Shown here piece after piece: positions 1-15,182 of a DNA stretch of 64,000 bases. Position 1 is the first letter of the stretch; each line of letters begins with the position of its first letter. The DNA comes from Clostridiales bacterium (GTDB lineage: Bacteria > Bacillota > Clostridia > Oscillospirales > CAG-272): positions 1,735 through 65,734 of the forward strand of contig JAEEYP010000048.1 in NCBI GenBank assembly GCA_016288155.1, read 5' to 3'. The position numbers and the translations under genes are program-made. The notes beneath the pieces were generated by a model. That model was not told the DNA's origin. It was given only the letters and a program-made list of their open reading frames with translations, and made no database searches.

Positions 1-146
1 GGCTCGATGCGGGCGTTGTGCCAGCCGTCCTGATCGTTGTACTCCATGATGAACATGTGGTCGGTGAAATACTTGCCGAAGCCGAGCGTGGAAGGTTCCG
101 GTTTTTCCTTTTTCACCGTGGTGGGATGAAAATCGATTTTCAGCAT
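1..146 (-). CDS. ilvE: Branched-chain amino acid aminotransferase, N-terminal 49 codons (gene runs off the window)
   Basis: Reverse-complement translation from ATG at 146..144 gives MLKIDFHPTTVKKEKPEPSTLGFGKYFTDHMFIMEYNDQDGWHNARIEP. The GFGKYFTDHMF block is typical of class IV BCAT N-termini. It lies 11 nt downstream of the OFOR gamma gene on the same strand. Confidence 0.75.
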   Translation of the reverse strand, partial: MLKIDFHPTTVKKEKPEPSTLGFGKYFTDHMFIMEYNDQDGWHNARIE

Positions 147-157
147 GGCGTTTCTCC

Positions 158-694
158 TTATCCTTCGTATTGATAGCCGACGTCGATGGCGCGCCGGTTG
201 AGATCGAGCATTTCCTTGTGGCGGGCGGAGACGACCTTCGCGAGCGCTTCGTCGAGATTATCGTAGGAGATCGCGTCGCATTCGCGGATCAGCTTGCCGA
301 CGATGATCATGTTCGCCAGCGTCGTGATCCCCTCGTCCGCCGCCATCTGCGTGGCGGGGATGCGGAACGCGCGCACGTCGGCGCGGTTGACGCCGCGCTC
401 GATCAGCGTGGAGTCCGCGATGATGATGCCGCCCGGCACGACGGCGCTTTCATAGCGGTCGAGCGAGGGCAGGTTCATGGCGATGAGCACGTCCGGACGG
501 GTGACGATCGGGGAACCGACGGCGGAGTCGGAGACGATGACGGAGCAGGAAGCCGTGCCGCCGCGCATCTCCGGACCGTAGGACGGGAGCCACGAGACCT
601 GACTGCCCTCCATCATCGCCTTGTACGCGAGGAATTTCCCGGAGAACAGGATACCCTGTCCGCCGAAGCCTGTGATGAGGATCTGGGTCGTCAT
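158..694 (-). CDS. 2-oxoacid:ferredoxin oxidoreductase, gamma subunit
   Basis: 178-aa ORF starting MTTQILITGFGGQGILFSGKFLAYKAMMEG, the GGQG motif typical of OFOR gamma subunits. Its start is 1 nt from the beta subunit stop. Confidence 0.85.
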   Translation of the reverse strand: MTTQILITGFGGQGILFSGKFLAYKAMMEGSQVSWLPSYGPEMRGGTASCSVIVSDSAVGSPIVTRPDVLIAMNLPSLDRYESAVVPGGIIIADSTLIERGVNRADVRAFRIPATQMAADEGITTLANMIIVGKLIRECDAISYDNLDEALAKVVSARHKEMLDLNRRAIDVGYQYEG

Positions 695-695
695 C

Positions 696-1442
696 TCACT
701 TCACCTCCGCATATTTGTCTTTGTATACGCCGAGCGGATAGTAGGGGATCATCTTCTCCTCGACCCATGCGAGCGCCTTGTCCGGCGTCATTCCCCAGTT
801 CGTCGGGCAGGTGGAGATCACCTCGATCAGCGAAAAGCCCTTGCCCTCGACCTGATTTTTGAACGCGCGGAGGATCGCCCGCTTCGCGTTCTTCACGTTC
901 TTGACGCTGTTGACGGCGACGCGCTCCAGATACGACGCGCCGTCGAGCTGGGAGAGCATCTCGCACATCTTGATCGGGTAGCCCTGCGTCGCGACGTCGC
1001 GGCCGTAGGGGGAGGTCTGCGTGACCTGACCGGGCAGGGAGGTCGGCGCCATCTGACCGCCGGTCATGCCGTAGATCGCGTTGTTCACGAAGATGATCGT
1101 GATGTTCTCGCCGCGGGCGGCGGAATGGACGGTCTCGCAGGTGCCGATGGAGGCGAGGTCGCCGTCGCCCTGATACGTGAAGACGATCTTCGACGGATCG
1201 GAGCGCTTGACGCCCGTCGCGACGGCGGGGGCGCGTCCGTGCGCCGCCTGCACCATATCGACGGTGAAATAGTTGTACGCCATGACGGAACAGCCGACGG
1301 AGGCGACGCCGATCGTGCGTCCCTCGATGCCGAGCTCGTCGATCGCTTCGGCGACGAGACGGTGGATGATGCCGTGCGTGCAGCCGGGGCAGTAATGCAG
1401 CGGCGCGTCGGTCAGCGATTTCGGTTTTTCAAAGACGATCAT
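696..1442 (-). CDS. 2-oxoacid:ferredoxin oxidoreductase, beta (TPP-binding) subunit
   Basis: Trimmed the track ORF 696..1655 to the ATG at 1442 (MIVFEKPKSLTDAPLHYCPGCTHGIIHRLV...). It carries the CPGC motif and a GDGD TPP-binding region. ATGA overlap with the alpha subunit stop. The upstream extension is Arg/Pro-rich junk. Confidence 0.85.
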   Translation of the reverse strand: MIVFEKPKSLTDAPLHYCPGCTHGIIHRLVAEAIDELGIEGRTIGVASVGCSVMAYNYFTVDMVQAAHGRAPAVATGVKRSDPSKIVFTYQGDGDLASIGTCETVHSAARGENITIIFVNNAIYGMTGGQMAPTSLPGQVTQTSPYGRDVATQGYPIKMCEMLSQLDGASYLERVAVNSVKNVKNAKRAILRAFKNQVEGKGFSLIEVISTCPTNWGMTPDKALAWVEEKMIPYYPLGVYKDKYAEVK

Positions 1443-2503
1443 GCTTTCAGTCCTCCTTGAGCGGTTTCGATGGCGGCAAGGACTTCGTCCGGCGAGGGGA
1501 TCATGCCGCCGGCGCGGTTGACGAGCGTGACGGGGCGGGCGCAGTCCATGGCGAGGCGCACGTCCTCGATCATCTGCCCCATGGAGAGCTCCACGGAAAT
1601 GAAGCGCTTCGCGTGGGACGCGGCGCCGGCGATCACCGCTTTCGGGAACGGCCACAGCGTGATCGGGCGGATCAGTCCGACGCGGATGCCCTTCTCGCGG
1701 GCGGCGAGGATCGCGTTCTTGGAGACGCGCGCCGCGATGCCGAACGCCACGACGACGATGTCCGCGTCCTCCGTCATGAAGGATTCGGCGGCCGCCTCGT
1801 TCTCCTCGACGGTGCGGTAGCGCTCGTAGCGGGCGAAGTTCGTCCTCTCCAGATCCTCGGGGACGAGGTAGAGGGAATTGACGATATTGTGCGGGCGCTT
1901 GCCGTCCGTGCCGGTCAGCGCCCAGGGCTTTTCATAGACGACCGGTTCCGGCGCCTCGAGGACGACCGGCTCCATCATCTGCCCCATCGTGCCGTCGGCG
2001 AGGATCATCGACGTCATGCGGTATTTGTCCGCCAGATCGAAGCCCTTCATCGTCAGCGCCGCCATTTCCTGAACGGAGGCGGGCGCGAGCACGATCATAT
2101 GGAAATCGCCGTGCCCGGAGCCGCGCGTCGCCTGGAAATAGTCGGACTGCGACGGCTGGATGCCGCCGAGACCGGGACCGCCGCGCTCCACGTTGACGAC
2201 GAGCGCCGGAAGATCACAGCCGGCGAGATAGGAAAGCCCCTCGCATTTGAGGGAGATCCCGGGACTGGAGGAGGAGGTCATGGCGCGCTTGCCGGTGGAC
2301 GCGACGCCGATGACCATGTTGATCGCGGCGAGCTCGCTCTCCGCCTGCAGGAACGTGCCGCCGATCTTCGGCATGCGCTTCGCCATATAGGCGGCGACTT
2401 CCGTCTGCGGGGTGATCGGATATCCGAAATAGTGGCGGCAGCCGGCGAGGATGGCGGCCTCCGCGATGGCTTCGTTGCCTTTCATCAGAACCTTTTCAGC
2501 CAT
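1439..2503 (-). CDS. 2-oxoacid:ferredoxin oxidoreductase, alpha subunit (VorB/KorA-like)
   Basis: Trimmed the track ORF to the ATG at 2503 (MAEKVLMKGNEAIAEAAILAGCRHYFGYPITPQTE...), the canonical OFOR alpha N-terminus. A GGAG-type RBS (aaaggagcg) lies upstream on the coding strand. Confidence 0.85.
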   Translation of the reverse strand: MAEKVLMKGNEAIAEAAILAGCRHYFGYPITPQTEVAAYMAKRMPKIGGTFLQAESELAAINMVIGVASTGKRAMTSSSSPGISLKCEGLSYLAGCDLPALVVNVERGGPGLGGIQPSQSDYFQATRGSGHGDFHMIVLAPASVQEMAALTMKGFDLADKYRMTSMILADGTMGQMMEPVVLEAPEPVVYEKPWALTGTDGKRPHNIVNSLYLVPEDLERTNFARYERYRTVEENEAAAESFMTEDADIVVVAFGIAARVSKNAILAAREKGIRVGLIRPITLWPFPKAVIAGAASHAKRFISVELSMGQMIEDVRLAMDCARPVTLVNRAGGMIPSPDEVLAAIETAQGGLKA

Positions 2504-2520
2504 TTTTTTCGCTCCTTTCC

Positions 2521-2727
2521 TTATTTTTCGACCGTGATGATGCAGTCTGGACACATCGTGGCGCAGAACGCGCAGCCGATGCACCCTGACTGGTCGGCGA
2601 CCTCTACGGGATGGTGTCCCTTTTTGTTGATCTTATCCGCGGCGAGGACGAGGACCTTCTTCGGGCAGGCGGAGACGCACAGCCCGCAGCCCTTGCAGAG
2701 ATCGGTCTGGAATGTCAGTTTCGGCAT
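2521..2727 (-). CDS. 4Fe-4S ferredoxin-type delta subunit of OFOR
   Basis: 68 aa with two CxxCxxCxxxCP motifs (CKGCGLCVSACP and CIGCAFCATMCP). Confidence 0.85.
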   Translation of the reverse strand: MPKLTFQTDLCKGCGLCVSACPKKVLVLAADKINKKGHHPVEVADQSGCIGCAFCATMCPDCIITVEK

Positions 2728-3449: not shown

Positions 3450-5747
3450 TCAGAGCTTGGAGCGGATGATCTTGCCGCTCGTGGTCTTCGGAAGCTCGTC
3501 GCGGAACTCGACGATGCGCGGATATTTATAGGGCGCCGTGTGCGCCTTGACGTAATTCTGGATCTCCTTCTTCAGCTCGTCCGTGCCGACGGTGCCGCGC
3601 GTGAGCACGACGCTCGCCTTGACGATCTGTCCCCGGATCTCGTCCGGGACGGCGGAAACGCCGCATTCGAGGACGTACGGCAGTTCCATGATGACGGATT
3701 CGATTTCGAACGGTCCGATGCGGTAGCCGGACGACTTGATGACGTCGTCGATGCGGCTGACGTACCAGTAGAAGCCGTCCTCGTCGCGCCACGCGAGGTC
3801 GCAGGTGTGATAGTATCCGTCGTGCCAAACCTCGGCGGTCTTTTCCGGATCGTTCCAGTATCCGGTGAAGAGTCCGCAGGGCGCGCCCTCCGCGACGCGG
3901 ATGCAGATCTCGCCGGTCTCGCCGTCGCCGACCTCGTTCCCGTCGCCGTCGAGCAGACGGACGTCGTAGATCGGGCAGACACGTCCCATCGAGCCGATCT
4001 TGTGCGGCGCGCCGGAGAGGTTGCCGAGGATGCACGTCGTTTCCGTTTGACCGAAGCCTTCCATGATCGGGAGCCCCGTCGCCGCCATGAACTGCCGGTA
4101 TACCTCCGGGTTGAGCGCCTCGCCGGCCGTGGAGGCGTGGCGGAGCGTGGAGTAAGAATAGCGGGAGAGATCTTCTTTTATGAGCATGCGGTACATCGTC
4201 GGCGGCGCGCAGAAGGTCGTGATGCCGTATTCCTCAAAGAGCGGCAAAATCTGCGCGGCGTCGAAACGGTCGAAGTCGTACACGAAGGTCGCGCCCTCGC
4301 ACAGCCACTGACCGTACAGCTTGCCCCACATCGCCTTCGCCCAGCCGGTGTCGGAGATCGTGAAGTGCAGTCCGTCCGTCTGGACGCAGTGCCAGTATTT
4401 CGCGGTATGGAAATGCCCGAGCGGGTACTTGTGGCTGTGCAGCGCCATCTTCGGGTATCCGGTCGTGCCGGAGGTGAAGAAGGCGAGGAGCGGATCGTCC
4501 CCGCCGGGGGCGTCCGGCGTGCGGAGATAGTGGCTCGAATACATCGTGTACTCCTCGTCGAAGGAGCGCCAGCCGTCGCGCTTGCCGTTGACGAGGATGC
4601 GGATCGGCGATATGCCGGAGGCTTCCTCCGCGAGCTCGACCTGATGCGCGCAGTCGCCGTCGGCGGTGCAGATCACCGCCTTGACCTCCGCGAGGCGGAA
4701 GCGGTACTCAAGGTCGTGCGCGAGGAGCTGGTTCGTGCCGGGGATGGCGATGGCGCCGAGCTTGTTGAGCCCGAGCATCGCCGGCCAGAACTGCCAGTGC
4801 CGCTTGAGGATCATCATGACGCGGTCGCCGCGCCCGATGCCGATGGATTTGAAGTAGTTCGCGCAGCGCGCGGACTCGTGCGCCATGTCGTAGAAGGTGA
4901 AGCGGCGGCACTCCGTCTTGTCGCCGGAGAGCCAGACCATCGCGAGCTTGTCCGGCTTCTCGGCGGAGAGCGCGTCCACGAGGTCGAAGGCGAAATTGAA
5001 GTGCTCGATATCGTGGAAACGGATCGAGAGCGGCGTGCCGTTCTCGTCTTCCTCGGTATCGATGAAGCGGCGGTACACGCGCTCGGTGGTATCCGCCGGA
5101 GCGGGGGCGACGGCGGGAGACGGCGTTGCGGCGATGGCGAATTCGGGGATCTCCGCCCCGGAGGGATTGAGTACGATGGCGTAGAAATGGCAGTCCTGCC
5201 CGTCGAGGGCGATCATGCCGTGGGGCGTCGAGGAATCGTAATAGATGGAGTCCCCTTCGTGCAGGATCTCCTTGTGTTCGCCGACCTGCACCTTCAGCGT
5301 ACCGCTGATGACGATGTCGCATTCCTGTCCTTCGTGCGTCGTCATCTCGATGTCGCGGTGCAGCGCCTCTTCCATGAAGCGCAGCCGCACGCACAGCGGT
5401 TCCGCGATGCGGTTCTTGAACGCGGCGGCGAGGTTATGGTACACCATGCCGTGCGCTTCCTTGATCTCCTGACCGCCGCCGCGGCGGGTGACCGTGTAGG
5501 AGGCGAGCGTCGGGGATTTTCCTTCGATGATATCCGTGACGTCCACGTTGAAGGCGAGCGCGCAGCGGTAGATGAAGGCGAAGGGAAGATCGGACAGCCC
5601 GTTCTCGCAGGCGGTGTACTCCTCCTCGGAGACGTCCGTCTTCTGCGCCATCTCCGCGCAGGTATATCCCTCGATCTCGCGCAGCTCGCGGATGCGCCCC
5701 GCCATTTCGGCGATCTTCACGTCCAGACCGGTGATCGGTTTTGCCAT
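3450..5747 (-). CDS. Three-domain fusion: XRE-family HTH + cupin + ACSM/MACS-type medium-chain acyl-CoA synthetase (AMP-forming)
   Basis: 765 aa.
- N-terminus IRELREIEGYTCAEMAQKTDVSEEEYTACENG is HTH_3-like.
- The block HEGQECDIVISGTLKVQVGEHKEILHEGDSIYYDSSTPHG is cupin-like.
- The C-terminal ~540 aa carry the adenylate-forming motifs FTSGTTGYPKM, GFGQTET, SGYRIGPFEIES and PKTTSGKIIR.
- RBS ggagg lies 5 nt upstream of the ATG. Confidence 0.85.
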   Translation of the reverse strand: MAKPITGLDVKIAEMAGRIRELREIEGYTCAEMAQKTDVSEEEYTACENGLSDLPFAFIYRCALAFNVDVTDIIEGKSPTLASYTVTRRGGGQEIKEAHGMVYHNLAAAFKNRIAEPLCVRLRFMEEALHRDIEMTTHEGQECDIVISGTLKVQVGEHKEILHEGDSIYYDSSTPHGMIALDGQDCHFYAIVLNPSGAEIPEFAIAATPSPAVAPAPADTTERVYRRFIDTEEDENGTPLSIRFHDIEHFNFAFDLVDALSAEKPDKLAMVWLSGDKTECRRFTFYDMAHESARCANYFKSIGIGRGDRVMMILKRHWQFWPAMLGLNKLGAIAIPGTNQLLAHDLEYRFRLAEVKAVICTADGDCAHQVELAEEASGISPIRILVNGKRDGWRSFDEEYTMYSSHYLRTPDAPGGDDPLLAFFTSGTTGYPKMALHSHKYPLGHFHTAKYWHCVQTDGLHFTISDTGWAKAMWGKLYGQWLCEGATFVYDFDRFDAAQILPLFEEYGITTFCAPPTMYRMLIKEDLSRYSYSTLRHASTAGEALNPEVYRQFMAATGLPIMEGFGQTETTCILGNLSGAPHKIGSMGRVCPIYDVRLLDGDGNEVGDGETGEICIRVAEGAPCGLFTGYWNDPEKTAEVWHDGYYHTCDLAWRDEDGFYWYVSRIDDVIKSSGYRIGPFEIESVIMELPYVLECGVSAVPDEIRGQIVKASVVLTRGTVGTDELKKEIQNYVKAHTAPYKYPRIVEFRDELPKTTSGKIIRSKL

Positions 5748-5777: not shown

Positions 5778-6050
5778 AAAAACGCCCGTCCCAAAGATGG
5801 TTACGATCCTTGAGACGAGCGATAAACGTCACCCGCGGTACCACTCAAGTTGCGCCGATCCGGCGCCGCTCATCAGGCTCGATACAAGCCCTGTGCCTTC
5901 ACGCAGCATTCACGGGGAAGTTCTACTTGCTCACGCTTTCTTCTTCCCGGCTCAGAAGCTACAAACGGGAAAACGCTTTCATCGGCTCGCACCGCCCGCC
6001 GACTCTCTGCGGAAAGGATGTTTTCCGTCCTCTTCGTCGTCGCTTTTATT
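5778..6050 (-). promoter_or_regulatory. T-box leader (tRNA-sensing transcription attenuator), leader 1
   Basis: Read on the minus strand:
- K-turn GC-GAC-GA-C-GAAG paired with CUUC-U-GA-GC
- AGAGAG bulge
- distal loop GGGCGGUGCGA
- T-box AACUUGAGUGGUACCGCGGGU (plus coordinates 5831..5853)
- terminator hairpin CGUCUCAAGGAUCG..CAUCUUUGGGACG followed by UUUUU (5778..5817). Confidence 0.9.
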
Positions 6051-6057
6051 AACTGGG

Positions 6058-6086
6058 ATTATACCACATTCTCTCCCGCCCGTCAA
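6058..6086 (-). promoter_or_regulatory. Sigma-A type promoter for T-box leader 1
   Basis: On the minus strand: TTGACG (6086..6081), a 17-nt spacer, then TATAAT (6063..6058). Confidence 0.7.
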
Positions 6087-6169: not shown

Positions 6170-7660
6170 TCACTCTCTGTTCGCGTCCGCCATGCCGCGG
6201 TATTCGTCGAGGAAGTCCTCGGCGGTCTTTTCCATGACGAGCGTGACGTTCCGCCCGTCCTCGCCGAAGGAGAAGACGGCGTACATATTGCCGAAGTACC
6301 GATCGATGATCTGTACCTTGATCCCGAATTTCCGCTCTTCTTTCCATGCGGCGCTGACGGCGCAGCGGTACATAAACCCGTTCGTCGTGCGCACGCCGCC
6401 CGCCTCGTCGGAGTAGCCGAGCTGCGGGAAGCGGCAGAGCACGTTGTCTCCGATGGTGAACGGCAGCGTCTTCTCGCCCTGCGCGTTCTCCCAATAGAAC
6501 TCGCCGCTCTGTCCGTCCGGCGAGAAACGCAGGGCGAAGCGGCGGATGCCCATGCTGTTATCGCCGCAGCGGTAGTACCGGCCGTCGATGACGGAGCGGA
6601 ACGGGCTGTCCGCGCGGCCGGGGATCGAGAAGAGCTTCAGCTTGTCCGTCTCTTCGAGCAGCGCGCGGTGCGCCGCTTCGTTCTCCGGGAGCGGCTCGCC
6701 GCCCATGCGGTCCACGAGGAACTCGTTCATGCCGGCGACGAAGAGATCGATGTTGCTTTCCTGTCCCTGGTTGTCGCCGGTGCAGATGCAGATGAGATCC
6801 TTTTCCGGGATGCAGTAGGTCGACTGCCCGCCCATGCCGGAGAACCAGAAGCCGTTGTCCAGCATCCAGATCTGATAGCCGTAACCGACGGAACGGCAGG
6901 TGATGAAGCCGTTCGAGCAGTTGTCGACCTGCGGGGAGGTCGCGTCGCGCACGTACTGCTCCGGGATCAGCTGCTCGCCCTTCCAGCGTCCGCCGTTCAT
7001 GAGCAGCCGGGCGAAGGAGGCGATGTCGCGCGTCGTGCAGACCATGGCGGAATCGCCCCAGGACTCGCCGTTCGGCGTTTTGAGGATCTCGGCGTTTCGG
7101 AAGGTGCCGATCCGGTCGAAGAGCTTTTTCTTTAAATAATCGAGCAGCCGCATCCCGGTCAGCTTCTCGACGAGGACGCCGAGTGTCTGCGAGCCGGCGG
7201 AATCGTACTGGAAGATGCGCCCGCCCGGCATGCCGCGCTGACCGTTGCCGTTGAGATAGTAATGCACGCGGTCCGGATCGCCGCTCGTGAACCAGCGGCC
7301 CAGCGGCTGGACGGTCGTCTCCATCGTCAGCATGTTGCGGATCGTCTGTTTCTTGAGCGCTTCGGGGAGCTCCGTGTCGATCCGCTCCGGGAAGTACTTG
7401 ACGATGGGATCGTTTATGGAGATCTTTCCCTCCGCCTCGAGCAGACCGATGGCGATGGCGACGAAGCTCTTCGTCTGGGAATACATCCGGTGCACGTCGT
7501 CCGTGCCGAACGGCTTCCAGCGGAATTCACCGAAGATCTCCTCTCCTTTCATGAGAAGAAGATTGTGCATGACGACGCCGTTGCGCTCGAGGAACCGCAC
7601 GAAACCGAGTACGTCCTGCGAGCGGATGCCGGCTTTCTCCGGGGTGATTTTCTCAAACAT
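6170..7660 (-). CDS. Serine hydrolase, beta-lactamase/transpeptidase-like fold (class C-like, cytoplasmic)
   Basis: 496 aa. It has an SxxK motif (YSQTKSF) in the typical N-terminal position and no signal peptide. Confidence 0.7.
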   Translation of the reverse strand: MFEKITPEKAGIRSQDVLGFVRFLERNGVVMHNLLLMKGEEIFGEFRWKPFGTDDVHRMYSQTKSFVAIAIGLLEAEGKISINDPIVKYFPERIDTELPEALKKQTIRNMLTMETTVQPLGRWFTSGDPDRVHYYLNGNGQRGMPGGRIFQYDSAGSQTLGVLVEKLTGMRLLDYLKKKLFDRIGTFRNAEILKTPNGESWGDSAMVCTTRDIASFARLLMNGGRWKGEQLIPEQYVRDATSPQVDNCSNGFITCRSVGYGYQIWMLDNGFWFSGMGGQSTYCIPEKDLICICTGDNQGQESNIDLFVAGMNEFLVDRMGGEPLPENEAAHRALLEETDKLKLFSIPGRADSPFRSVIDGRYYRCGDNSMGIRRFALRFSPDGQSGEFYWENAQGEKTLPFTIGDNVLCRFPQLGYSDEAGGVRTTNGFMYRCAVSAAWKEERKFGIKVQIIDRYFGNMYAVFSFGEDGRNVTLVMEKTAEDFLDEYRGMADANRE

Positions 7661-7709
7661 CGGGAGTTCTCCTTTATATAGAATTAACGGGATTCGGACG
7701 GAACGCCGC

Positions 7710-9107
7710 TCACAGCCCGAGCAGGCGGGAGGCGACGGCGAAGTAGAGGAGCAGCGACAGCGCGTCGACGATCGTCGTGATGAGCGGCGACGCCATCACG
7801 GCGGGGTCGAAGCCGAGGCGCTTCGCGATGAGCGGCAGCGTGCAGCCGACGGCTTTCGCCGTCATGACGGTCAGCGTCATCGTCAGAGCGACGGTGAGCG
7901 CGACGAGCACCGTGACGCCCGCGTTGCCGAGGATCAGCCGGTCGATGAGCATCGCCTTGGCGAAACTCGCCGCGCCGAGGCAGAGACCGCACAGCCCCGC
8001 GACGCGGAGCTCCTTCCAGATCACGCGAAGGATGTCGGAAAACTCGATCTCGCCGAGCGACAGACCGCGGATCACGGTGACGGACGCCTGCGCGCCGGAG
8101 TTGCCGCCCGTGTCCATGAGCATCGGGATGAACGCGACGAGCGCGACCTGCGCGGCGAGCGCGTTCTCGAAGGTGGTGAGGATCATGCCGGTGAAGGTCG
8201 CGGAGATCATGAGAAGGAGCAGCCACGGGATGCGGTTGCGCCACAGTTCCCATACGCTCAGGCGCATGTACGATTTGTCGGACGGGAGGATAGCCGCCAT
8301 CTTCTCGATGTCTTCCGTGGTCTCTTCCTCGATGACGGTCAGCGCGTCGTCGACGGTGATGATGCCGACGAGCCGTTTTTCCTCATCGACGACGGGCAGC
8401 GCCAGAAAGCCGTAGTGACTGAGCAGCTTCGCCGCTTCCTCCCGGTCGCAGAGCGTGTTCACGGAGATCACGTTCGTGTCCATGACGTCCCCGACGCTCT
8501 GGTCGTCCTTGGCGAGCAGAAGCTCGCGCACGGTGATGACGCCCTCGAGGTATCGCTTCTGATCGGTGACGTAGCAGGTGTAGATCGTCTCGGAATCCGC
8601 GCCGGTGCGGCGGATATGCTCGATCGCCTCCGGCACCGTCATGGAGGCTTTCAGGTGCGTGTACTCCGCGGTCATGACGCTCCCGGCGGAGTTCTCCGGG
8701 TATTTGAGGAACTGATTGATGAGCGAGCGCGTCTCCGGCGACGCGATGCGCAATATCCGCTTGACGACGTTGGCGGGCAGTTCCTCCAGCATGTCGACCG
8801 CGTCGTCGATGTACAGCTCTTCTACGATGGCGCCCATTTCGGAATCCGTCACGCCGGTGATGAGCTCCTCCTGCTTGTCCGGATCCAGGTACGAGAAGAC
8901 CTCCGCCGCCCATTCCTTCGGCAGCGTGCGGAAGGCGACGAGCGCCTCGTCCTGCGGAAGCGTGCCGAGCCATTCCGCGATGTCCACTTCCTGGAAATCC
9001 TGATACGTCTCGCGGAGCTCGCGCAGCTTATGCGCCTGTACGAGTTCCGTCAGGCGGTCGGTCTCCGGGACGTACGGCGCCGTTTGCGTTGTTTTTTCCT
9101 GTTCCAT
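7710..9107 (-). CDS. mgtE: Magnesium transporter MgtE
   Basis: Trimmed to the ATG at 9107 (MEQEKTTQ...), with RBS aaaggagaa upstream. Architecture is the MgtE N-domain, tandem CBS region and C-terminal TM domain (GNSGAQASV, ASPLITTIVDA). Confidence 0.85.
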   Translation of the reverse strand: MEQEKTTQTAPYVPETDRLTELVQAHKLRELRETYQDFQEVDIAEWLGTLPQDEALVAFRTLPKEWAAEVFSYLDPDKQEELITGVTDSEMGAIVEELYIDDAVDMLEELPANVVKRILRIASPETRSLINQFLKYPENSAGSVMTAEYTHLKASMTVPEAIEHIRRTGADSETIYTCYVTDQKRYLEGVITVRELLLAKDDQSVGDVMDTNVISVNTLCDREEAAKLLSHYGFLALPVVDEEKRLVGIITVDDALTVIEEETTEDIEKMAAILPSDKSYMRLSVWELWRNRIPWLLLLMISATFTGMILTTFENALAAQVALVAFIPMLMDTGGNSGAQASVTVIRGLSLGEIEFSDILRVIWKELRVAGLCGLCLGAASFAKAMLIDRLILGNAGVTVLVALTVALTMTLTVMTAKAVGCTLPLIAKRLGFDPAVMASPLITTIVDALSLLLYFAVASRLLGL

Positions 9108-9300
9108 ACGGTTTCTCCTTTCGTTTTGCCGCCCGTCGGGCGGCATGGGGATACGGCCGTGCCGCCGTCTCCCCCGAAAGGAAGGGAAGGGACGGCGCGG
9201 TCTGCCGGGACGCATAAGGGAGGATTACTTCGCCCGGGTATACTCATGCCGTCTCACCCCTTTTTGCAGGTACGGAAACCGTACGCTTCATTCTGCCAAC

Positions 9301-9329
9301 AGTATAGCACATTTTGCGCGGCAATGCAA
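9301..9329 (-). promoter_or_regulatory. Putative promoter of mgtE
   Basis: On the minus strand: TTGCAT, a 17-nt spacer, then TATACT. It would give a ~185-nt leader. Confidence 0.5.
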
Positions 9330-9380
9330 TCCGGGAAACGCAGAAACGGAGAAAAAACGCGCACATTTGCGCAAAACCCA

Positions 9381-9409
9381 TTGACGGACGGCGGGGAGGG
9401 GGGTATAAT
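9381..9409 (+). promoter_or_regulatory. Putative promoter of the 9446 gene
   Basis: TTGACG (9381..9386), a 17-nt spacer, then TATAAT (9404..9409). Confidence 0.6.
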
Positions 9410-9445
9410 TTTACTGCAATCATCGGGAATCGGGAGATATCTGTT

Positions 9446-11509
9446 ATGACAAGTATCGGCAAGGAATATCTGACCATGCTCCGCGAATGGGCGGAGGCGA
9501 TGCGCCCCTATCTTTTCACGCCCGCGGACCGTCCCGACCTCACCTATTACGGCGACGGTACGAACGGCTGGGGCACCCAGACGAACCAGAAGGCGCTCGC
9601 GGCGCTCGCCGCGCTCGCGACGCTGCCGGGCGGCGAGCCGAAGTGGATCCCCACGGCGCTCGCCATGCTCCGCTATTCGCTCGAATCGCACCTCGTCGGT
9701 TCCTATCATCTCTCCGACGGGGAGGACATGAAGTGGGGGCACACGTGGATCTCTCCGCTCGGCGTGGAACGGATGATGTTCGGCGTGGACCTGCTCCTCC
9801 CGTACATGACGGAGGACGACCGGGCGCTCTTACGCCGCATGCTGATCTCCGAGGCGGACTGGCACCTGACGGACTGGCCGGTCAGGGCGGGGCTCGTCGA
9901 CTGGAACTTCCCGGAGAGCAACATGTGGAACGGCGCGCTCCTCCTCCGCACCGCCTCGCTCTATCCGGACTGCCCGAACGCGGCGGCGTACGTCGACCGC
10001 GGGACGGATTTCCTCGTCAACGCGGTCTCCGTGCCGTCGACGTCGCAGGAGAAGACGGTCTACGAGGGGAAGACGGCGGCAGAGCGCTTCGTCGGCGCGA
10101 ATTTCTTCGAGAGCTATGCGACGGACCATCATCACTACATGAACGTCGGATACATGGTCATCACGCTCTCGAACGCCTCCATGCTGTATTTCCACTACCG
10201 CACGCGCGGACTGCCCGTCCCGCCGGTGCTGCTCCACAATCTCGAGCGGCTGTGGCAGCTCGTCAAGTCCTTCCTCTATGAAGACGGGCGGCTCCTCCGG
10301 ATCGGCGGCGACACGCGCATCCGCTACTGCTACTGCCAGGATTATCTTCTCCAGACGCTGAACATGGCGGCGGATCTCTGGGGCGAGGAGACGGACGGCT
10401 GGGAACGCGGCTGGATCGGGCAGCTGATGAAGGAACGGACGTACAACGGGGACGGTTCCTTCCTCTCCCGCCGCGCGGAGATCTTCGTCGAGCGCTCGCC
10501 GCTCTACTACACGCGTCTGGAGTCGGACCGCGCCTCTTGCATCGCGTTCAGCGCCGTCCACCGTCATCTCTTCTCCGATTTCGCCGAACCGGCCGGACGG
10601 CGGGAGATCCCGCCGCTTACGGTGTGGTCCGATGCATATCACGGCTCGTATCTCGTCCGGGAACCGGGGCGGTACGCCGCGTTCACCTGGCGCGGGGCGG
10701 AGGGTCCGTCGGCGCTCTGCCTGCCGCCGGAGGATTCCTCCCTCGCCGAGTGGAAGCTCAACCTGACCGGGGCGGTGACGGGCAACGGTTCGGAGGAGAA
10801 CGCGAACATGCTCTCGTTCGGCGGACGCTCCTTCATCGGCGGCTTTCTGACGTGGGGCAGCTACGTGTCGCACACGCGCGGACTGCTCGAGGAGCAGATC
10901 CGCGAGGAGGATACCGTCCGCACGCAGCTCGTGTGCGCGGCGCTGCCGGACGGGAAGACGATGATCGTGATGCAGTACGCGCGCGCCGTGAAGAACTGTC
11001 ATATCACTTCCGCGTCGCCTCTGCATCTGAATATCCCGAACGACGTCTTCAACGGGTTCTCCCGTACCTACACGGAGTCCGAGGGACGCGTCACAGTGGA
11101 CGGACGGATGACGGTCATCCCCGCCTACGGCGGACGGCTGAAGATCCTGCGCCCGCCGTACCGGCAGATCGGCATCCGCGCCTCCCAGTGGGTCTATCCG
11201 ACGCGCGGCTTTCTGCACGCGGACGAGATCTCGATGGATCCGATCGAGACGCCCGTGTTCCTCGCCGCGGGGCAAATCGCGTTCGATATCGGCGCGGCGG
11301 TGACGCTCTCGCGCGGCGGCTTTGCCGCGGGCTCGGCGATCCGCGCCGTGCGCGACGGGACGCATCCGCTTCTGCGCGGCGTGACGTATACGGCGGACGA
11401 CGGGACGGCGTACACGGTGCTCGCCAATTTCGGCGAGACGGATGCGGAAGCCGTGATCGGCGGACGCGCCGTGACGGTCCCCGCCGGGGCGGGCGAGATC
11501 TTTTGGTGA
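9446..11509 (+). CDS. Hypothetical cytoplasmic protein, tentatively alpha/alpha-toroid plus beta-sandwich (heparinase II/III-like lyase fold)
   Basis: Start trimmed to the ATG at 9446 (MTSIGKEYL..), with RBS gggag upstream. No signal peptide. The motifs NFPESNMWNG and TDHHHYMNVGY resemble polysaccharide-lyase toroid active-site regions. The assignment is by eye only. Confidence 0.4.
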   Translation: MTSIGKEYLTMLREWAEAMRPYLFTPADRPDLTYYGDGTNGWGTQTNQKALAALAALATLPGGEPKWIPTALAMLRYSLESHLVGSYHLSDGEDMKWGHTWISPLGVERMMFGVDLLLPYMTEDDRALLRRMLISEADWHLTDWPVRAGLVDWNFPESNMWNGALLLRTASLYPDCPNAAAYVDRGTDFLVNAVSVPSTSQEKTVYEGKTAAERFVGANFFESYATDHHHYMNVGYMVITLSNASMLYFHYRTRGLPVPPVLLHNLERLWQLVKSFLYEDGRLLRIGGDTRIRYCYCQDYLLQTLNMAADLWGEETDGWERGWIGQLMKERTYNGDGSFLSRRAEIFVERSPLYYTRLESDRASCIAFSAVHRHLFSDFAEPAGRREIPPLTVWSDAYHGSYLVREPGRYAAFTWRGAEGPSALCLPPEDSSLAEWKLNLTGAVTGNGSEENANMLSFGGRSFIGGFLTWGSYVSHTRGLLEEQIREEDTVRTQLVCAALPDGKTMIVMQYARAVKNCHITSASPLHLNIPNDVFNGFSRTYTESEGRVTVDGRMTVIPAYGGRLKILRPPYRQIGIRASQWVYPTRGFLHADEISMDPIETPVFLAAGQIAFDIGAAVTLSRGGFAAGSAIRAVRDGTHPLLRGVTYTADDGTAYTVLANFGETDAEAVIGGRAVTVPAGAGEIFW

Positions 11510-11589
11510 AAAGCGGACGCGCGTCCGCACGGAAATAGAAAAACTGCCGGCACCCCCTTGCGGCGCCGGTTCCGAAGGAGGCATCCCGT

Positions 11590-12501
11590 ATGCAGCACTA
11601 CAAGCACGTCATCGTCGCGGGGGTCGACGGCGCCGGCGCGTTCTTCCGCGTCGCCGACACTCCGTGTTTCGACCGGATCTTCGGGAGCGGCGCCGTGACC
11701 TATACGGCGCTGGCTTCCCGCCCTTCCATCAGCGCCGAATGCTGGGGCTCCATGCTCATCGGCGTCGGGCCGGAGGTCCATAAGCTGACGAACGACGTCG
11801 TGTCGAAAAAACCGTATCCGGCCGATTCTCCGTTCCCGTCGCTCTTCCGCCGTATCCGCACGGCGATGCCCGACGCACCGCTCGGCGCCTTCTGCTGCTG
11901 GTCCCCGATCCTTTCCGGGATCATGGAGCAGGATCAGAACGTGACGAACGCCGCCGTGTGGGACAAGGATATCCCGCGCGTGGCAGGCGACTATATCAAA
12001 GAAAAGAAGCCGGCTTTCCTCTTCATGCATTTCGACAGCCCCGACGGCGTCGGTCACCATAACGGGTACGGTTCTCCCGAGCAGCTCGCGCAGATCCACG
12101 CGGTGGACGCGTTCGTGGGTGAAGTCTACGACGCGGTCGTCTCCGCAGGCATAGCGCAGGACACGCTCTTCATGCTGATCGCCGATCACGGCGGCACGCC
12201 CTCCACGGGCCCCGCCGGTCACGGCGGCTGGACGGACGAGGAGAAGTACGTGACATTCGCGGCGTGCGGCCGCGGCGTCCGGCACGGTGCCGTCGGCGAG
12301 ATGAACGTCCGCGATCTTTCGGCGATCGTTCTGTACGCGTTGGGGATCGACGCGCCCGCCTTCGACGAGAAGGGCTGGACGTCGCAGATCCCGGAGGGTC
12401 TCTTCGAGGATCCGTCGATCCCGGCGTACCGCGACATCTCCCACCTGACCGGCGCCGCGCCGCGGCGGTCAGATTCTCCCCATACCTCGGTGCCGGTCTA
12501 A
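11590..12501 (+). CDS. Alkaline phosphatase superfamily protein (type I phosphodiesterase / nucleotide pyrophosphatase-like)
   Basis: 303 aa. Metal-ligand-like blocks are VIVAGVDGAG, FMHFDSPDGVGHHNGYG and LIADHGGT. No signal peptide. Confidence 0.6.
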   Translation: MQHYKHVIVAGVDGAGAFFRVADTPCFDRIFGSGAVTYTALASRPSISAECWGSMLIGVGPEVHKLTNDVVSKKPYPADSPFPSLFRRIRTAMPDAPLGAFCCWSPILSGIMEQDQNVTNAAVWDKDIPRVAGDYIKEKKPAFLFMHFDSPDGVGHHNGYGSPEQLAQIHAVDAFVGEVYDAVVSAGIAQDTLFMLIADHGGTPSTGPAGHGGWTDEEKYVTFAACGRGVRHGAVGEMNVRDLSAIVLYALGIDAPAFDEKGWTSQIPEGLFEDPSIPAYRDISHLTGAAPRRSDSPHTSVPV

Positions 12502-12564
12502 GGGGAGCGATTCTAAAAAAAAACGATGAATCTGCAAAAAACCGAAGAATCTGCAAATTATCTC

Positions 12565-12593
12565 TTGACACGGCTCCCCCGGCGTGCTATAAT
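12565..12593 (+). promoter_or_regulatory. Sigma-A type promoter for T-box leader 2
   Basis: TTGACA (12565..12570), a 17-nt spacer, then an extended -10 TGcTATAAT (12585..12593). Confidence 0.75.
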
Positions 12594-12613
12594 GAATCAA
12601 CAACCGAATAACA

Positions 12614-12881
12614 GGCGTTGACGAAGACGGCGGAAAAGCGGTACTCCAGAGAGTCGGCGGGCGGTGCGAGCCGACGTATTCCTTTTCAGAAGCCTATCCC
12701 TTCCGAGCCGGAAGGCTGAACCCCCGCGAGGGCAAGTAGGTCTTCCCGTGATTGCTGCGTAAAGGCATAGGGCTTATTGGAGCCTGAGAGGCATCGGCGT
12801 CCGCCGGTGCAATTTGAGTGGTACCGCGGGTTTTGTTTTCAGACCCGTCTCAAAGCGATTTGAGACGGGTTTTTATTTTTT
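12614..12881 (+). promoter_or_regulatory. T-box leader (tRNA-sensing transcription attenuator), leader 2
   Basis: - K-turn GGC-GUU-GA-C-GAAG paired with CUUC-C-GA-GCC
- AGAGAG bulge (12648..12653)
- distal loop GGGCGGUGCGA
- T-box AAUUUGAGUGGUACCGCGGGU (12811..12831)
- terminator ACCCGUCUCAAAGCGAUUUGAGACGGGU followed by a U-run (12843..12881). Confidence 0.9.
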
Positions 12882-12899: not shown

Positions 12900-15182
12900 A
12901 TGCAGAACAGCGAGCAGAACGTCGGCGTCCCGATGACGCAGCTTGAGGAGATGGCGCACCGCATCCGCGACATGCGCGAGATCGCGGGACTGACGGCGGC
13001 GCAGATGGCGCAGAAAACGGAGATCACGGAGGAGGAATACCTGCGTTACGAGGAAGGGAAGGTGGATTTCCCCTTCACGTTCCTGCACAAATGCGCGCTC
13101 GCTTTCGGCATTGAGATTACGGAGATCCTCGAGGGGCACGGCGCGCGCCTTGCCTCTTATACCGTGACCCGGAAAGGGAAGGGCGCCCGCACCGCGCACG
13201 AGGACGGCATCGAGATCGCCGACCTCGCGCCGATGTTCCGCGGCAAGCTCGCTGAGCCGTATTGGGTACGCTATACGTATTCCGACGCGCTCCAGTCCGC
13301 GCCGATCCACTGCACGAAGCATGCCGGACAGGAGTTCGACCTCGTTCTGAGCGGGCGGCTGCGCGTGCAGGTCGGCACGCACACCGAGGAGCTCGCCGAG
13401 GGAGACAGCATCTTCTACAACAGCTCGACGCCGCACGGCATGATCGCCGTCGGCGGCGAGGACTGCGTTTTCCTCGCGTTCGTCATGACGGGCGAACCCT
13501 CCGGCGAGGACGTGCTCCATCCGGAATACATCTCCGCCCCGCAGACGGAGCGGCTGACCGTCGAGAAATTCGCGCACACGAAGACGGACGCGAACGGCCT
13601 GTTGACGGAGGTGCATTTCGAGAATGCCGACCGCTTCAACTTCGCCTTCGACATCGTCGACACGCTCGGCCGCGAGAAGCCGGACCAGCTCGCGATGATC
13701 CACCTCGACGGGGAGAAGAACGAGCGCCGCTTCACCTTCGCGGACATGAAGCGCGCTTCCTCCCAGTGCGCGAATTACTTCAAGGCGCTCGGCATCCGGC
13801 GCGGCGACCGCGTCATGCTCGTGCTCAAGCGGCACTGGCAGTTCTGGCCGGCGATCCTCGGTCTGCACAAGCTCGGCGCCGTCGCCATCCCGGCGACGAA
13901 CCAGCTTCACGAGCACGATTTCGTCTACCGCTTCGACGCGGCGGGCGTCTCCGCCGTGCTCTGCACCGCGGACGGACAGACCGCCGCCGACGTGGACGCC
14001 GCCGCCGCGAAGTGCCCGTCGGTCAAGCTGAAGATCCTCGTCGGCGGACAGCGCGAGGGCTGGCGCGATTTCAACGGAGAATACAGCCTCTTCACCGGCA
14101 AGTTCGAGCGCACGGAGGACGCTCCCTGCGGGGACGACACGATGCTCATGTTCTTCACCTCCGGCACGACCGGCTATCCGAAGATGGCGATGCATTCCTA
14201 TAAGTATCCGCTCGGGCATTACCTGACGGCGCGCTACTGGCACAACATCCATCCGGGCGGGCTCCATCTGACGATCTCCGACACCGGCTGGGGCAAGGCG
14301 CTCTGGGGCAAGCTCTACGGCCAGTGGATGTGCGAGGCCGCCGTCTTCACCTACGATTTCGACCGCTTCCACGCAAACGATATCCTGCCGCTCTTCGCGC
14401 AGTATCAGATCACGACTTTCTGCGCGCCGCCGACGATGTACCGCATGCTCATAAAGGAAGACATCTCCCGCTACGATCTTTCCTCGATCCGCTATGCGAC
14501 GACGGCGGGCGAGGCGCTCAACCCGGAGGTCTTCCGGCAGTTCGAGAAGCAGACGGGGCTGAGGATCATGGAGGGCTTCGGACAGACGGAGACGACGCTG
14601 ACGATCGGCAACATGGTCGGCGCGCCCGCCAAGATCGGCTCTATGGGACGGCCGGTACCGCTGTACGACATCGACCTCGTCGACCCGGACGGGAATCCCG
14701 TGCCGGACGGCGAGACGGGCGAGATCGTCGTCCGCACGGACCGGGAGATCCCCTGCGGGCTCTTCAAGGGCTACTACGAGGCGCCGGACAAGACGGAGGA
14801 GGTCTGGCACGACGGCATGTACCACACGCGCGACCTCGCATGGCGGGATGAGGACGGCTACTTCTGGTACGTCGGCCGTGCGGACGACGTCATCAAGTCG
14901 TCCGGCTACCGCATCGGACCGTTCGAGATCGAATCCGTCATCATGGAGCTGCCGTACGTGCTCGAATGCGGCGTGTCCGCCGCGCCGGACGAGATCCGCG
15001 GGCAGGTCGTAAAGGCGAGCATCGTGCTCACGAAGGGGACCGTCGGCACGGAGGAACTGAAGAAGGAGATCCAGGACTACGTGAAGAAGCAGACCGCGCC
15101 GTACAAGTACCCGCGCATCGTCGTTTTCCGGGACGAGCTGCCGAAGACGATCAGCGGCAAGATCATGCGCAATAAACTCTGA
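12900..15182 (+). CDS. Paralogous three-domain fusion: XRE-family HTH + cupin + ACSM/MACS-type acyl-CoA synthetase
   Basis: 760 aa, collinear with the 3450..5747 product. Both carry the FTSGTTGYPKMA motif, and the stretch SGYRIGPFEIESVIMELPYVLECGVSA is identical in both. RBS ggagg lies upstream. Confidence 0.85.
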   Translation: MQNSEQNVGVPMTQLEEMAHRIRDMREIAGLTAAQMAQKTEITEEEYLRYEEGKVDFPFTFLHKCALAFGIEITEILEGHGARLASYTVTRKGKGARTAHEDGIEIADLAPMFRGKLAEPYWVRYTYSDALQSAPIHCTKHAGQEFDLVLSGRLRVQVGTHTEELAEGDSIFYNSSTPHGMIAVGGEDCVFLAFVMTGEPSGEDVLHPEYISAPQTERLTVEKFAHTKTDANGLLTEVHFENADRFNFAFDIVDTLGREKPDQLAMIHLDGEKNERRFTFADMKRASSQCANYFKALGIRRGDRVMLVLKRHWQFWPAILGLHKLGAVAIPATNQLHEHDFVYRFDAAGVSAVLCTADGQTAADVDAAAAKCPSVKLKILVGGQREGWRDFNGEYSLFTGKFERTEDAPCGDDTMLMFFTSGTTGYPKMAMHSYKYPLGHYLTARYWHNIHPGGLHLTISDTGWGKALWGKLYGQWMCEAAVFTYDFDRFHANDILPLFAQYQITTFCAPPTMYRMLIKEDISRYDLSSIRYATTAGEALNPEVFRQFEKQTGLRIMEGFGQTETTLTIGNMVGAPAKIGSMGRPVPLYDIDLVDPDGNPVPDGETGEIVVRTDREIPCGLFKGYYEAPDKTEEVWHDGMYHTRDLAWRDEDGYFWYVGRADDVIKSSGYRIGPFEIESVIMELPYVLECGVSAAPDEIRGQVVKASIVLTKGTVGTEELKKEIQDYVKKQTAPYKYPRIVVFRDELPKTISGKIMRNKL

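Follow-up and report, generated by a model that had tools for sequence, protein, structure and literature searches.

Two proteins encoded in a 64,000-nt stretch of DNA from a Clostridiales bacterium (lineage CAG-272; contig JAEEYP010000048.1 of assembly GCA_016288155.1, positions 1,735 to 65,734 of the forward strand; hereafter the window) combine on a single chain an XRE-type helix-turn-helix (HTH) domain, a cupin barrel, a disordered Pro/Ala linker and a complete MACS-type acyl-coenzyme A (acyl-CoA) synthetase. This fusion was confirmed for both open reading frames (ORFs), ORF1 and ORF2, and was found to be widespread in gut Clostridia. The HTH-cupin module looks less like a DNA-binding repressor and more like a ligand sensor mounted on the enzyme. 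Our preferred explanation, which we hold tentatively, is that it is a small-molecule-sensing accessory module that would act on the synthetase at the protein level. We arrived at this reading because the module is obligately paired or fused with a synthetase, its HTH is acidic, an operator is missing, and a conserved pocket is framed by paralogue-specific residues.

The fused proteins and their split relatives

An earlier note, made from the sequence alone, had described ORF1 as an HTH and a cupin joined by a Pro/Ala linker to a MACS-type synthetase, and had pointed to a paralogue of the same architecture at 12900..15182. Both descriptions held, and the positions that the note gave were exact. 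Pfam and AlphaFold2 agreed on the domains of ORF1, and Pfam returned the same architecture for ORF2, which shares 63% identity with ORF1. In ORF1, whose ATG follows a GGAGG ribosome-binding site at a distance of 5 nt, the HTH scored right at the cut-offs (HTH_19, residues 18-77, 30.1 bits, marginally below the cut-off of 30.2; HTH_31, 26.6 bits; HTH_3, 20.7 bits). Cupin_2 (residues 133-191, 47.7 bits, cut-off 27.2), AMP-binding (residues 262-631, E 1e-64) and AMP-binding_C (residues 681-759, E 4e-21) completed the chain. For ORF2, all three HTH models exceeded their respective cut-offs (HTH_19, 32.8 bits; HTH_31, 30.1 bits; HTH_3, 25.6 bits), and Cupin_2 (46.9 bits), AMP-binding (E 3e-67) and AMP-binding_C were matched as well. 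Structures were predicted with AlphaFold2 for the whole ORF1 chain (42-row alignment; mean predicted local distance difference test score, pLDDT, 83) and for its N-terminal 205 residues (47-row alignment; pLDDT 91.6). The models showed the five helices of an XRE (Cro/C1) fold (residues 7-26, 30-36, 41-48, 56-66 and 70-75; pLDDT 84-97), the strands of a cupin barrel at residues 93-193 and a well-folded synthetase domain, while residues 204-219, within the Pro/Ala-rich stretch ...AIAATPSPAVAPAPAD..., were disordered (pLDDT ~39). The profile searches and the structure prediction that the note had proposed as checks supported its HTH and cupin assignments.

Within the ANL superfamily, the catalytic half is a typical representative of the Macs/ACSM/MbcS branch. 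Both ORFs retain the adenylation motifs FFTSGTTGYPK, GFGQTET, YHT[CR]D, DDVIKSSGYRIGPFEIE and PKT[TI]SGKI, with the ANL core elements A3 P-loop (TSGTTGxPK), A5, A7 Asp, A8 hinge and A10 catalytic Lys all present. The closest solved relative of ORF1 was 3ETC (phmmer E 3e-182; Foldseek E 6e-65; 48% identity over the catalytic domain), the Macs protein of Methanosarcina acetivorans, which works with 2-methylbutyrate (PMC10455477). The best NCBIfam model was MbcS of Staphylococcus aureus (NF047394), at 424 bits for ORF1 and 423 bits for ORF2, below the equivalog cut-off of 850; ORF1 and ORF2 are relatives of MbcS, yet different proteins. Macs and MbcS activate 2-methylbutyrate or isobutyrate but serve other ends, membrane fatty-acid synthesis in the case of MbcS. 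Moreover, 3ETC (580 residues) and the MbcS model (525 positions) have the length of the catalytic domain, and neither match extends to the HTH-cupin module.

A survey of the fusion, also proposed in the earlier note, revealed at least 598 confirmed matching stretches in a scan of species-representative genomes. The alignment of each of the best 80 extended from within the first dozen residues up to residue 765, except where the contig or the stored stretch ended before that. These matches came from Oscillospiraceae, Acutalibacteraceae, Ruminococcus, Christensenellaceae, Faecousia and comparable lineages of gut and rumen. Likewise, the best 120 database matches had lengths of 760-795 residues and an identical Pfam architecture throughout; their source names were just "AMP-binding protein" or "cupin domain-containing protein". 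A search with the N-terminal 205 residues against 1.84 billion representatives returned 2485 relatives, among them stand-alone proteins of ~185 residues with 31-46% identity. Seven such stand-alone relatives (33-44% identity) were sampled, and the genes of six of them were immediately followed by an unfused synthetase gene of the FNFA[FY]D type. These partners, ~550 residues long where complete, were co-directional with the module gene at spacings from a 4-nt overlap to a 40-nt gap. The neighbourhoods of the pairs were otherwise unrelated, and the distant pairs had no ATPase or vor genes (see below) nearby. Since stand-alone modules sit beside unfused synthetase genes in otherwise unrelated neighbourhoods, module and synthetase therefore form an old two-gene unit that became fused in this lineage, and the fusion retains the gene order of the split pair (module, then synthetase). 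The earlier note had named loss or separation of the N-terminal region in close relatives, with no change in regulation, as a finding that would speak against its reading. Separation was seen only in distant relatives, where the split gene stays attached to a synthetase gene.

One fused paralogue (protein P0160, locus L095, 4493-6769) combines an intact HTH-cupin with a dead synthetase, in which the A3 P-loop is lost and FHTGT and PKDANGV stand in place of YHTGD and PKTxSGK. Its gene lies after an intact fused gene and before a class I/II aminotransferase gene, and P0160 may act as a sensor only or as a pseudoenzyme partner. In an incomplete literature collection, searched for the fusion, its split form, T-box control of vor or acyl-CoA synthetase operons and reductive carboxylation genes, we found no paper describing this protein family.

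DNA-contact surface and putative metal site of the module

XRE-cupin transcription factors are expected to present a polar or basic recognition helix, a basic loop and a neutral or positive HTH domain to DNA. This surface was not found in the module. Over residues 14-80 the net charge was –8 in ORF1 and –5 in ORF2, with means of –5.6 in 58 orthologues of ORF1 (Val-type), –6.2 in 31 orthologues of ORF2 (Ile-type) and –5.5 in 53 stand-alone modules, and a family range of –5 to –9. The equivalent segments of DNA-binding XRE proteins carry +3 (PuuR), +3 (1Y9Q), +2 (SinR) and +1 (a PbsX-family regulator). A proteome-wide composition bias was considered as the cause of this acidity and ruled out, as a small XRE protein from a relative's genome has a net charge of –1 to 0. 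Helix 3 reads S40-[E/V/L]41-E42-E43-Y, where positions 41-43 align with Gln28, Gln29 and Ser30 of the 434 repressor, which we take to be its DNA-reading residues; E43 is invariant within the Val group. Helix 3 is followed by the loop G-x-x-D-[L/F/I]-P, in which the Asp (D53) hardly varies, as opposed to the basic G-K-R-x-P of the canonical family. Furthermore, the exposed helix-3 positions 41, 45 and 46 vary freely among orthologues and include Val, Leu and Pro, unlike what a conserved operator would impose.

A set of 41 Val-type and 26 Ile-type non-redundant promoters was aligned on their –35 box. No conserved operator was found in these promoters, and targets elsewhere in the genome were not searched. 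All that the 67 promoters have in common is TTGACA, a 17-nt spacer, an extended –10 element (TGTGnTATAAT) and an A/T-rich, UP-like upstream tract. At several tandem loci, only 3-10 nt separate the stop codon of the upstream gene from the –35 box, which leaves no room upstream. Compared with shuffled sequences, inverted repeats in the Val promoters were barely over chance, with no enrichment past A/T-rich chance matches. The Ile group did show an excess, which we rejected as an operator: it corresponds to a T-tract and an A-tract just upstream of the –35 box and fits the UP-element consensus. This arrangement (T-tract, 1-3 nt, A-tract) directly precedes the –35 box in 14 of the 26 Ile-type promoters (loci L002-L084). 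The UP-like tract of the window itself (12520-12564) is degenerate and has a direct repeat, GAATCTGCAAA twice, instead. As a candidate operator this repeat (12527-12557) was discarded too, as it is not conserved in the closest relative, L001. A common palindrome was likewise not found in the upstream regions of the stand-alone module genes. Taken together, the DNA-binding competence of the HTH appears doubtful.

In the cupin, fused and stand-alone members alike have H138, E142 and H176 without exception, and these residues align with H138, E142 and H180 of HppE, the iron ligands of that enzyme (PMC7916636). A Foldseek search with the module returned the XRE-cupin regulator 1Y9Q as top match (E 6e-14), with HppE, Psf4, HEPD and MPnS at almost equal score (ranks 2-41). 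When a family profile was used in hmmsearch, HppE was matched in one stretch across both domains (profile positions 8-182, E 3e-11), whereas the match to 1Y9Q fell into two pieces. The helical domain of HppE is also acidic (net charge –4). HppE, Psf4, HEPD and MPnS are enzymes in which an XRE-like helical domain precedes the cupin, and we know of no DNA-binding role for that domain; in HppE it has a structural or oligomerisation role. The module thus has the N-terminal five-helix XRE/Cro-C1 HTH and the C-terminal cupin barrel of the XRE-cupin fold, and it appears to share the two-domain architecture with a 2-His-1-Glu metal site of the HppE/HEPD type. It is a member of the XRE-cupin superfamily that lacks the defining feature of the transcription factors, the DNA-contact surface, and in this respect resembles the HppE class.

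Conservation within the family suggests that the module is functional and under purifying selection. Among Val-type orthologues, mean pairwise identity was 0.67 for the HTH, 0.72 for the cupin and 0.73 for the synthetase core, compared with 0.35 for the linker; over the domains of the orthologues as a whole, the range was 0.67-0.86. Because HTH and cupin are conserved about as well as the synthetase core and the linker is not, the module can be assumed to be still in use. Between the Val and Ile groups, identity was 0.43-0.60 in the module and 0.69-0.87 in the enzyme. Eight positions cleanly separate the two types, and seven of these lie in the module (Y60H, R61K, P79A, A98E, M101I, Y103I and L118Y). 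The lone synthetase position is A470G in the motif DTGW[A/G]KA (window 4336-4338, minus strand; Ala in Val-type, Gly in Ile-type), which makes residue 470 of ORF1 a candidate determinant of acid chain selectivity. Positions 101 and 103 belong to a hairpin whose counterpart in the alignment with HppE is Tyr-rich (Y103, Y105) and presumably closes over the HppE substrate; by analogy, the hairpin of the module might play a part at its pocket. The paralogue pattern is in keeping with a pocket able to discriminate between the valine and isoleucine branches, but it could also stem from selection against mixed oligomers of both paralogues.

Sensor, repressor, enzyme or scaffold

How might such a module act? 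We propose a regulatory subunit tethered to the synthetase: on sensing a metabolite specific to its branch, it would tune or gate the activation of the acid. The acid, the 2-oxoacid and the amino acid are candidate ligands. Sensing would probably be metal-dependent, with the XRE-fold part in a structural or oligomerising role. IlvN with the ACT domain of acetolactate synthase, as well as the regulatory domain of LeuA, offer a functional analogy in that a branched-chain amino-acid route begins with an enzyme that has a ligand-binding unit encoded beside it or fused to it; their folds are unrelated to that of the module, and allostery in ORF1 and ORF2 is a proposal. A broader proposition, put forward with the same reserve, is that acidic XRE-cupin proteins are a previously unrecognised regulatory partner of ANL acyl-CoA synthetases: a non-DNA-binding, metal-dependent metabolite sensor, encoded upstream of or fused to the enzyme in lineages well beyond this one, which in the window would add branch-specific control at the protein level to that by the T-boxes.

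Several observations weigh against a sensor on the enzyme. With few exceptions, the XRE-cupin proteins characterised so far act locally to repress the enzyme genes next to them, and they bind palindromes as dimers (PMC7901475). The repressor PuuR keeps the His/Glu/His pattern of the module, and charge is an indirect argument against DNA binding. In the full-length AlphaFold2 model of ORF1, the module was not docked on the synthetase with confidence (predicted template modelling score 0.63) and the tether was disordered. The ligand of the module, its metal and its interaction with the synthetase are putative; ligand binding by the cupin and a resulting change in enzyme activity are likewise what we infer. 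Finally, at one split locus (L005/L006) the module/ligase pair is divergent from the ATPase-ferredoxin-oxidoreductase genes, and the 87-bp spacer contains no T-box but an inverted repeat (CGTATC-N9-GATACG), a layout reminiscent of a classical regulator.

One rival explanation is a bifunctional protein in the manner of BirA or PutA, in which a true XRE-cupin repressor would be fused to the enzyme that it controls. It would respond to the acid, the acyl-AMP or acyl-CoA, or the amino acid by binding an operator, located at its own promoter or at another site, and would thereby add a second transcriptional layer to the T-box. The fold, the top Foldseek match and the purifying selection on the HTH are all in keeping with such a repressor, and the flexible tether would let the module reach DNA. 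We nonetheless regard it as less likely than a sensor. An HTH at –5 to –9, set against +1 to +3 in DNA-binding XRE domains, Glu residues (E42, E43) on the recognition helix, D53 in the backbone-contact loop, free variation of the exposed helix-3 positions and the failure to find an operator conserved over the promoters, several of which have no room for one upstream of –35, all speak against it. In addition, some stand-alone module genes lie within operons and lack a promoter of their own, such as the one at L093, which starts 8 nt after the preceding gene. The likeness to known XRE-cupin transcription factors (PuuR of Escherichia coli; ErfA, PsdR and PauR of Pseudomonas; PDB 1Y9Q) is real in the two-domain fold and its order, the length of ~185 residues when stand-alone, the cupin His...Glu...His pattern and the genetic link to a neighbouring enzyme gene. 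The module differs from them in its strongly acidic HTH, in the Glu on its recognition helix, in that no palindromic operator was found, and in being co-directional with, abutting or fused to one enzyme family; similarity to PuuR is remote (at most 29 bits with the PuuR model, cut-off 211). BirA (biotin protein ligase and bio repressor), PutA and NadR share with ORF1 and ORF2 a DNA-binding-type domain on the chain of an enzyme, and the BirA enzyme also forms an adenylate. BirA, however, joins a winged helix to a class II aminoacyl-tRNA-synthetase-like fold, in place of an XRE HTH and an ANL fold, and its adenylate-driven dimerisation and its defined operator have no evident counterpart here, so that it provides a loose analogy only. 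The earlier note had proposed DNA binding in the style of BirA, on top of the T-box. This interpretation is supported in part only. In ORF1 and ORF2 an HTH-type fold is fused to an ANL enzyme, but it is doubtful that the HTH binds DNA, and both folds differ from those of BirA, which is not an ANL enzyme; binding to DNA found no support in the charge and recognition helix of the HTH, the aligned promoters or the end-to-end alignment with HppE. A second layer of control in addition to the T-box is still plausible, though probably by a route other than DNA.

The end-to-end match to HppE, the alignment of all three iron ligands with family invariants, the presence of Psf4, HEPD and MPnS among the Foldseek matches and the acidic helical domain raise a different prospect, namely that the module is itself catalytic: an HppE-like mononuclear-metal cupin enzyme that acts on the acid or the acyl-CoA, in a fusion of two enzymes. 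This seems improbable to us. The route from acid to amino acid requires no extra chemistry, the repressor PuuR has the same triad, so that the triad does not imply catalysis, and identity to the HppE group, whose members work as enzymes and not as regulators, is 18-21%. Lys23 of HppE, which we take to be a substrate-binding residue of that phosphonate enzyme, aligns with G27 and is not conserved in the module family. The context of the module is one of carboxylates and CoA, as it is always partnered with an acyl-CoA synthetase, and it is found in Clostridia of gut and rumen, which are presumably strict anaerobes and in which O2- or H2O2-dependent chemistry of the HppE type is unlikely. We give equally little credence to a passive scaffold, that is, an oligomerisation or docking domain that responds to no ligand and joins the synthetase with, for example, the ATPase or the oxidoreductase. 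Obligate pairing with the synthetase and an acidic surface suited to protein contacts would agree with such a role; in contrast, the ATPase and vor genes are not near the distant stand-alone pairs, and the invariant His/Glu/His pocket with paralogue-specific residues around it points to ligand binding.

Should the module indeed be a sensor on the enzyme, it would represent a new mode of control for adenylate-forming enzymes, for which lysine acetylation is a known form, and the practice of annotating XRE-cupin proteins as transcription factors without distinction would call for caution. If, on the other hand, DNA binding proved true, the proteins would be enzyme-repressors that act on top of a riboswitch, an uncommon arrangement. 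The attached HTH-cupin is uncharacterised although it is present in hundreds of matches across species-representative genomes.

T-box leaders, operon and predicted pathway

The coordinates of all features are compiled in Table 1. T-box leaders, ordinary in form, precede both genes, in line with the T-box context given in the earlier note. The leader of ORF2 scored just below the Rfam gathering threshold and would thus be missed by a default scan, but every T-box element is present and 30 orthologous leaders were found. Specifiers were read from 79 loci of species-representative genomes and four metagenome loci. Among 48 distinct leaders of ORF1 orthologues, the codon before the closing stem was GUA in 41 and GUC in five (Val in 46 of 48); for ORF2 orthologues it was AUC (Ile) in 29 of 30. 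The switch between GUA and GUC, both valine codons, is variation of the kind expected from a true specifier. A T-box was present in 81 of the 88 fused genes with enough upstream sequence, while T-box motifs were not found in the 520 nt upstream of the fused genes at L021, L041, L061, L067 and L073. On the evidence of these leaders, transcription of ORF1 and ORF2 appears to be gated by T-boxes that read uncharged tRNA-Val and tRNA-Ile, respectively.

Table 1 Features of the window that surround and make up the two fused genes
Feature	Position	Strand	Basis
ORF1, 765 residues, HTH-cupin-linker-acyl-CoA synthetase; Val-branch paralogue, predicted isobutyrate-CoA ligase	3450..5747	–	Pfam, NCBIfam, PDB match
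XRE-type HTH of ORF1, residues 14-77, acidic; recognition helix VSEEEYTACENG	5517..5708	–	Pfam HTH_19/31/3, AlphaFold2 helices, net charge –8, isoelectric point 4.2
Cupin barrel of ORF1, residues 93-193; family-invariant H138, E142, H176	5169..5471	–	Cupin_2, AlphaFold2 strands, invariant columns
Pro/Ala-rich flexible linker of ORF1, residues 196-235	5043..5162	–	Low pLDDT, low orthologue identity
ANL-superfamily medium/short-chain acyl-CoA synthetase domain of ORF1, residues 236-765	3453..5042	–	AMP-binding and AMP-binding_C, Foldseek 3ETC, motifs A3/A5/A7/A8/A10
T-box leader and terminator of ORF1; specifier GUA (Val) at 5960-5962	5808..6049	–	Rfam RF00230, 93.6 bits (gathering 93)
Promoter of the Val operon: TTGACG (6086-6081), 17 nt, TATAAT (6063-6058), extended –10 TGTGG	6058..6086	–	Sequence; layout kept in 41 orthologous loci
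ORF2, 760 residues, architecture as ORF1; Ile-branch paralogue, predicted 2-methylbutyrate-CoA ligase	12900..15182	+	Pfam
Domains of ORF2	HTH 12948-13139, cupin ~13185-13484, synthetase 13593-15179	+	Pfam
T-box leader and terminator of ORF2; specifier AUC (Ile) at 12696-12698	12609..12855	+	RF00230, 88.2 bits, E 8e-20 (gathering 93, just below)
Promoter of ORF2: TTGACA, 17 nt, TATAAT	12565..12593	+	Sequence; layout kept in 26 loci
Conserved P-loop (CbiA/MinD-like) ATPase, 228 residues	2749..3435	–	GHYGSGKT motif
2-Oxoacid:ferredoxin oxidoreductase genes (vorDABC)	158..2727: delta 2521-2727, alpha 1439-2506, beta 696-1442, gamma 158-694	–	Fer4; POR_N and PFOR_II; TPP_enzyme_C; POR
Start of class IV branched-chain aminotransferase gene, cut by the left window edge	1..146	–	MLKIDFHPTT... 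matches Aminotran_4 gene of L001

The operon that begins with ORF1 continues with the P-loop ATPase, vorDABC and a branched-chain aminotransferase gene, an order that is kept in relatives. ORF2 is monocistronic, as infC comes next. In the classical rumen route, valine and isoleucine are made from isobutyrate and 2-methylbutyrate by activation, reductive carboxylation and transamination, and many gut and rumen Clostridia depend on these two acids. The gene content of the operon is consistent with such a route from branched-chain acid to acyl-CoA, 2-oxoacid and amino acid. We predict that ORF1 and ORF2 are branched-chain carboxylate-CoA ligases that open a reductive-carboxylation route to amino acids, with ORF1 probably directing isobutyrate towards valine and ORF2 2-methylbutyrate towards isoleucine. 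The operon would thus provide a gene-level account of this conversion in gut and rumen Clostridia, with a separate T-box-gated ligase for each branch.

For the P-loop ATPase, no Pfam match was obtained at 1e-3 and its relatives gave weak CbiA/ParA matches; its position is kept in L001-L006. The gene always has the ligase on one side and the oxidoreductase ferredoxin subunit on the other, and it also adjoins the split module/ligase pair of L005/L006. The two ligase genes themselves are arranged differently among relatives: in L001-L004 the Ile- and Val-type genes are in tandem, while in the window the Val operon is inverted and 6.8 kb apart. The intervening region (6170-12501) contains a beta-lactamase-family gene, mgtE, an ORF of 731 residues and a phosphatase-like ORF of 303 residues. 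The closest relative (L001, 17469-21392) carries a LeuA-like gene just downstream of its Val operon and, after it, the gene of an 835-residue fusion in which a xylose-isomerase-like TIM barrel (AP_endonuc_2) is joined to an AMP-binding enzyme, another unusual N-terminal addition to an acyl-CoA synthetase.

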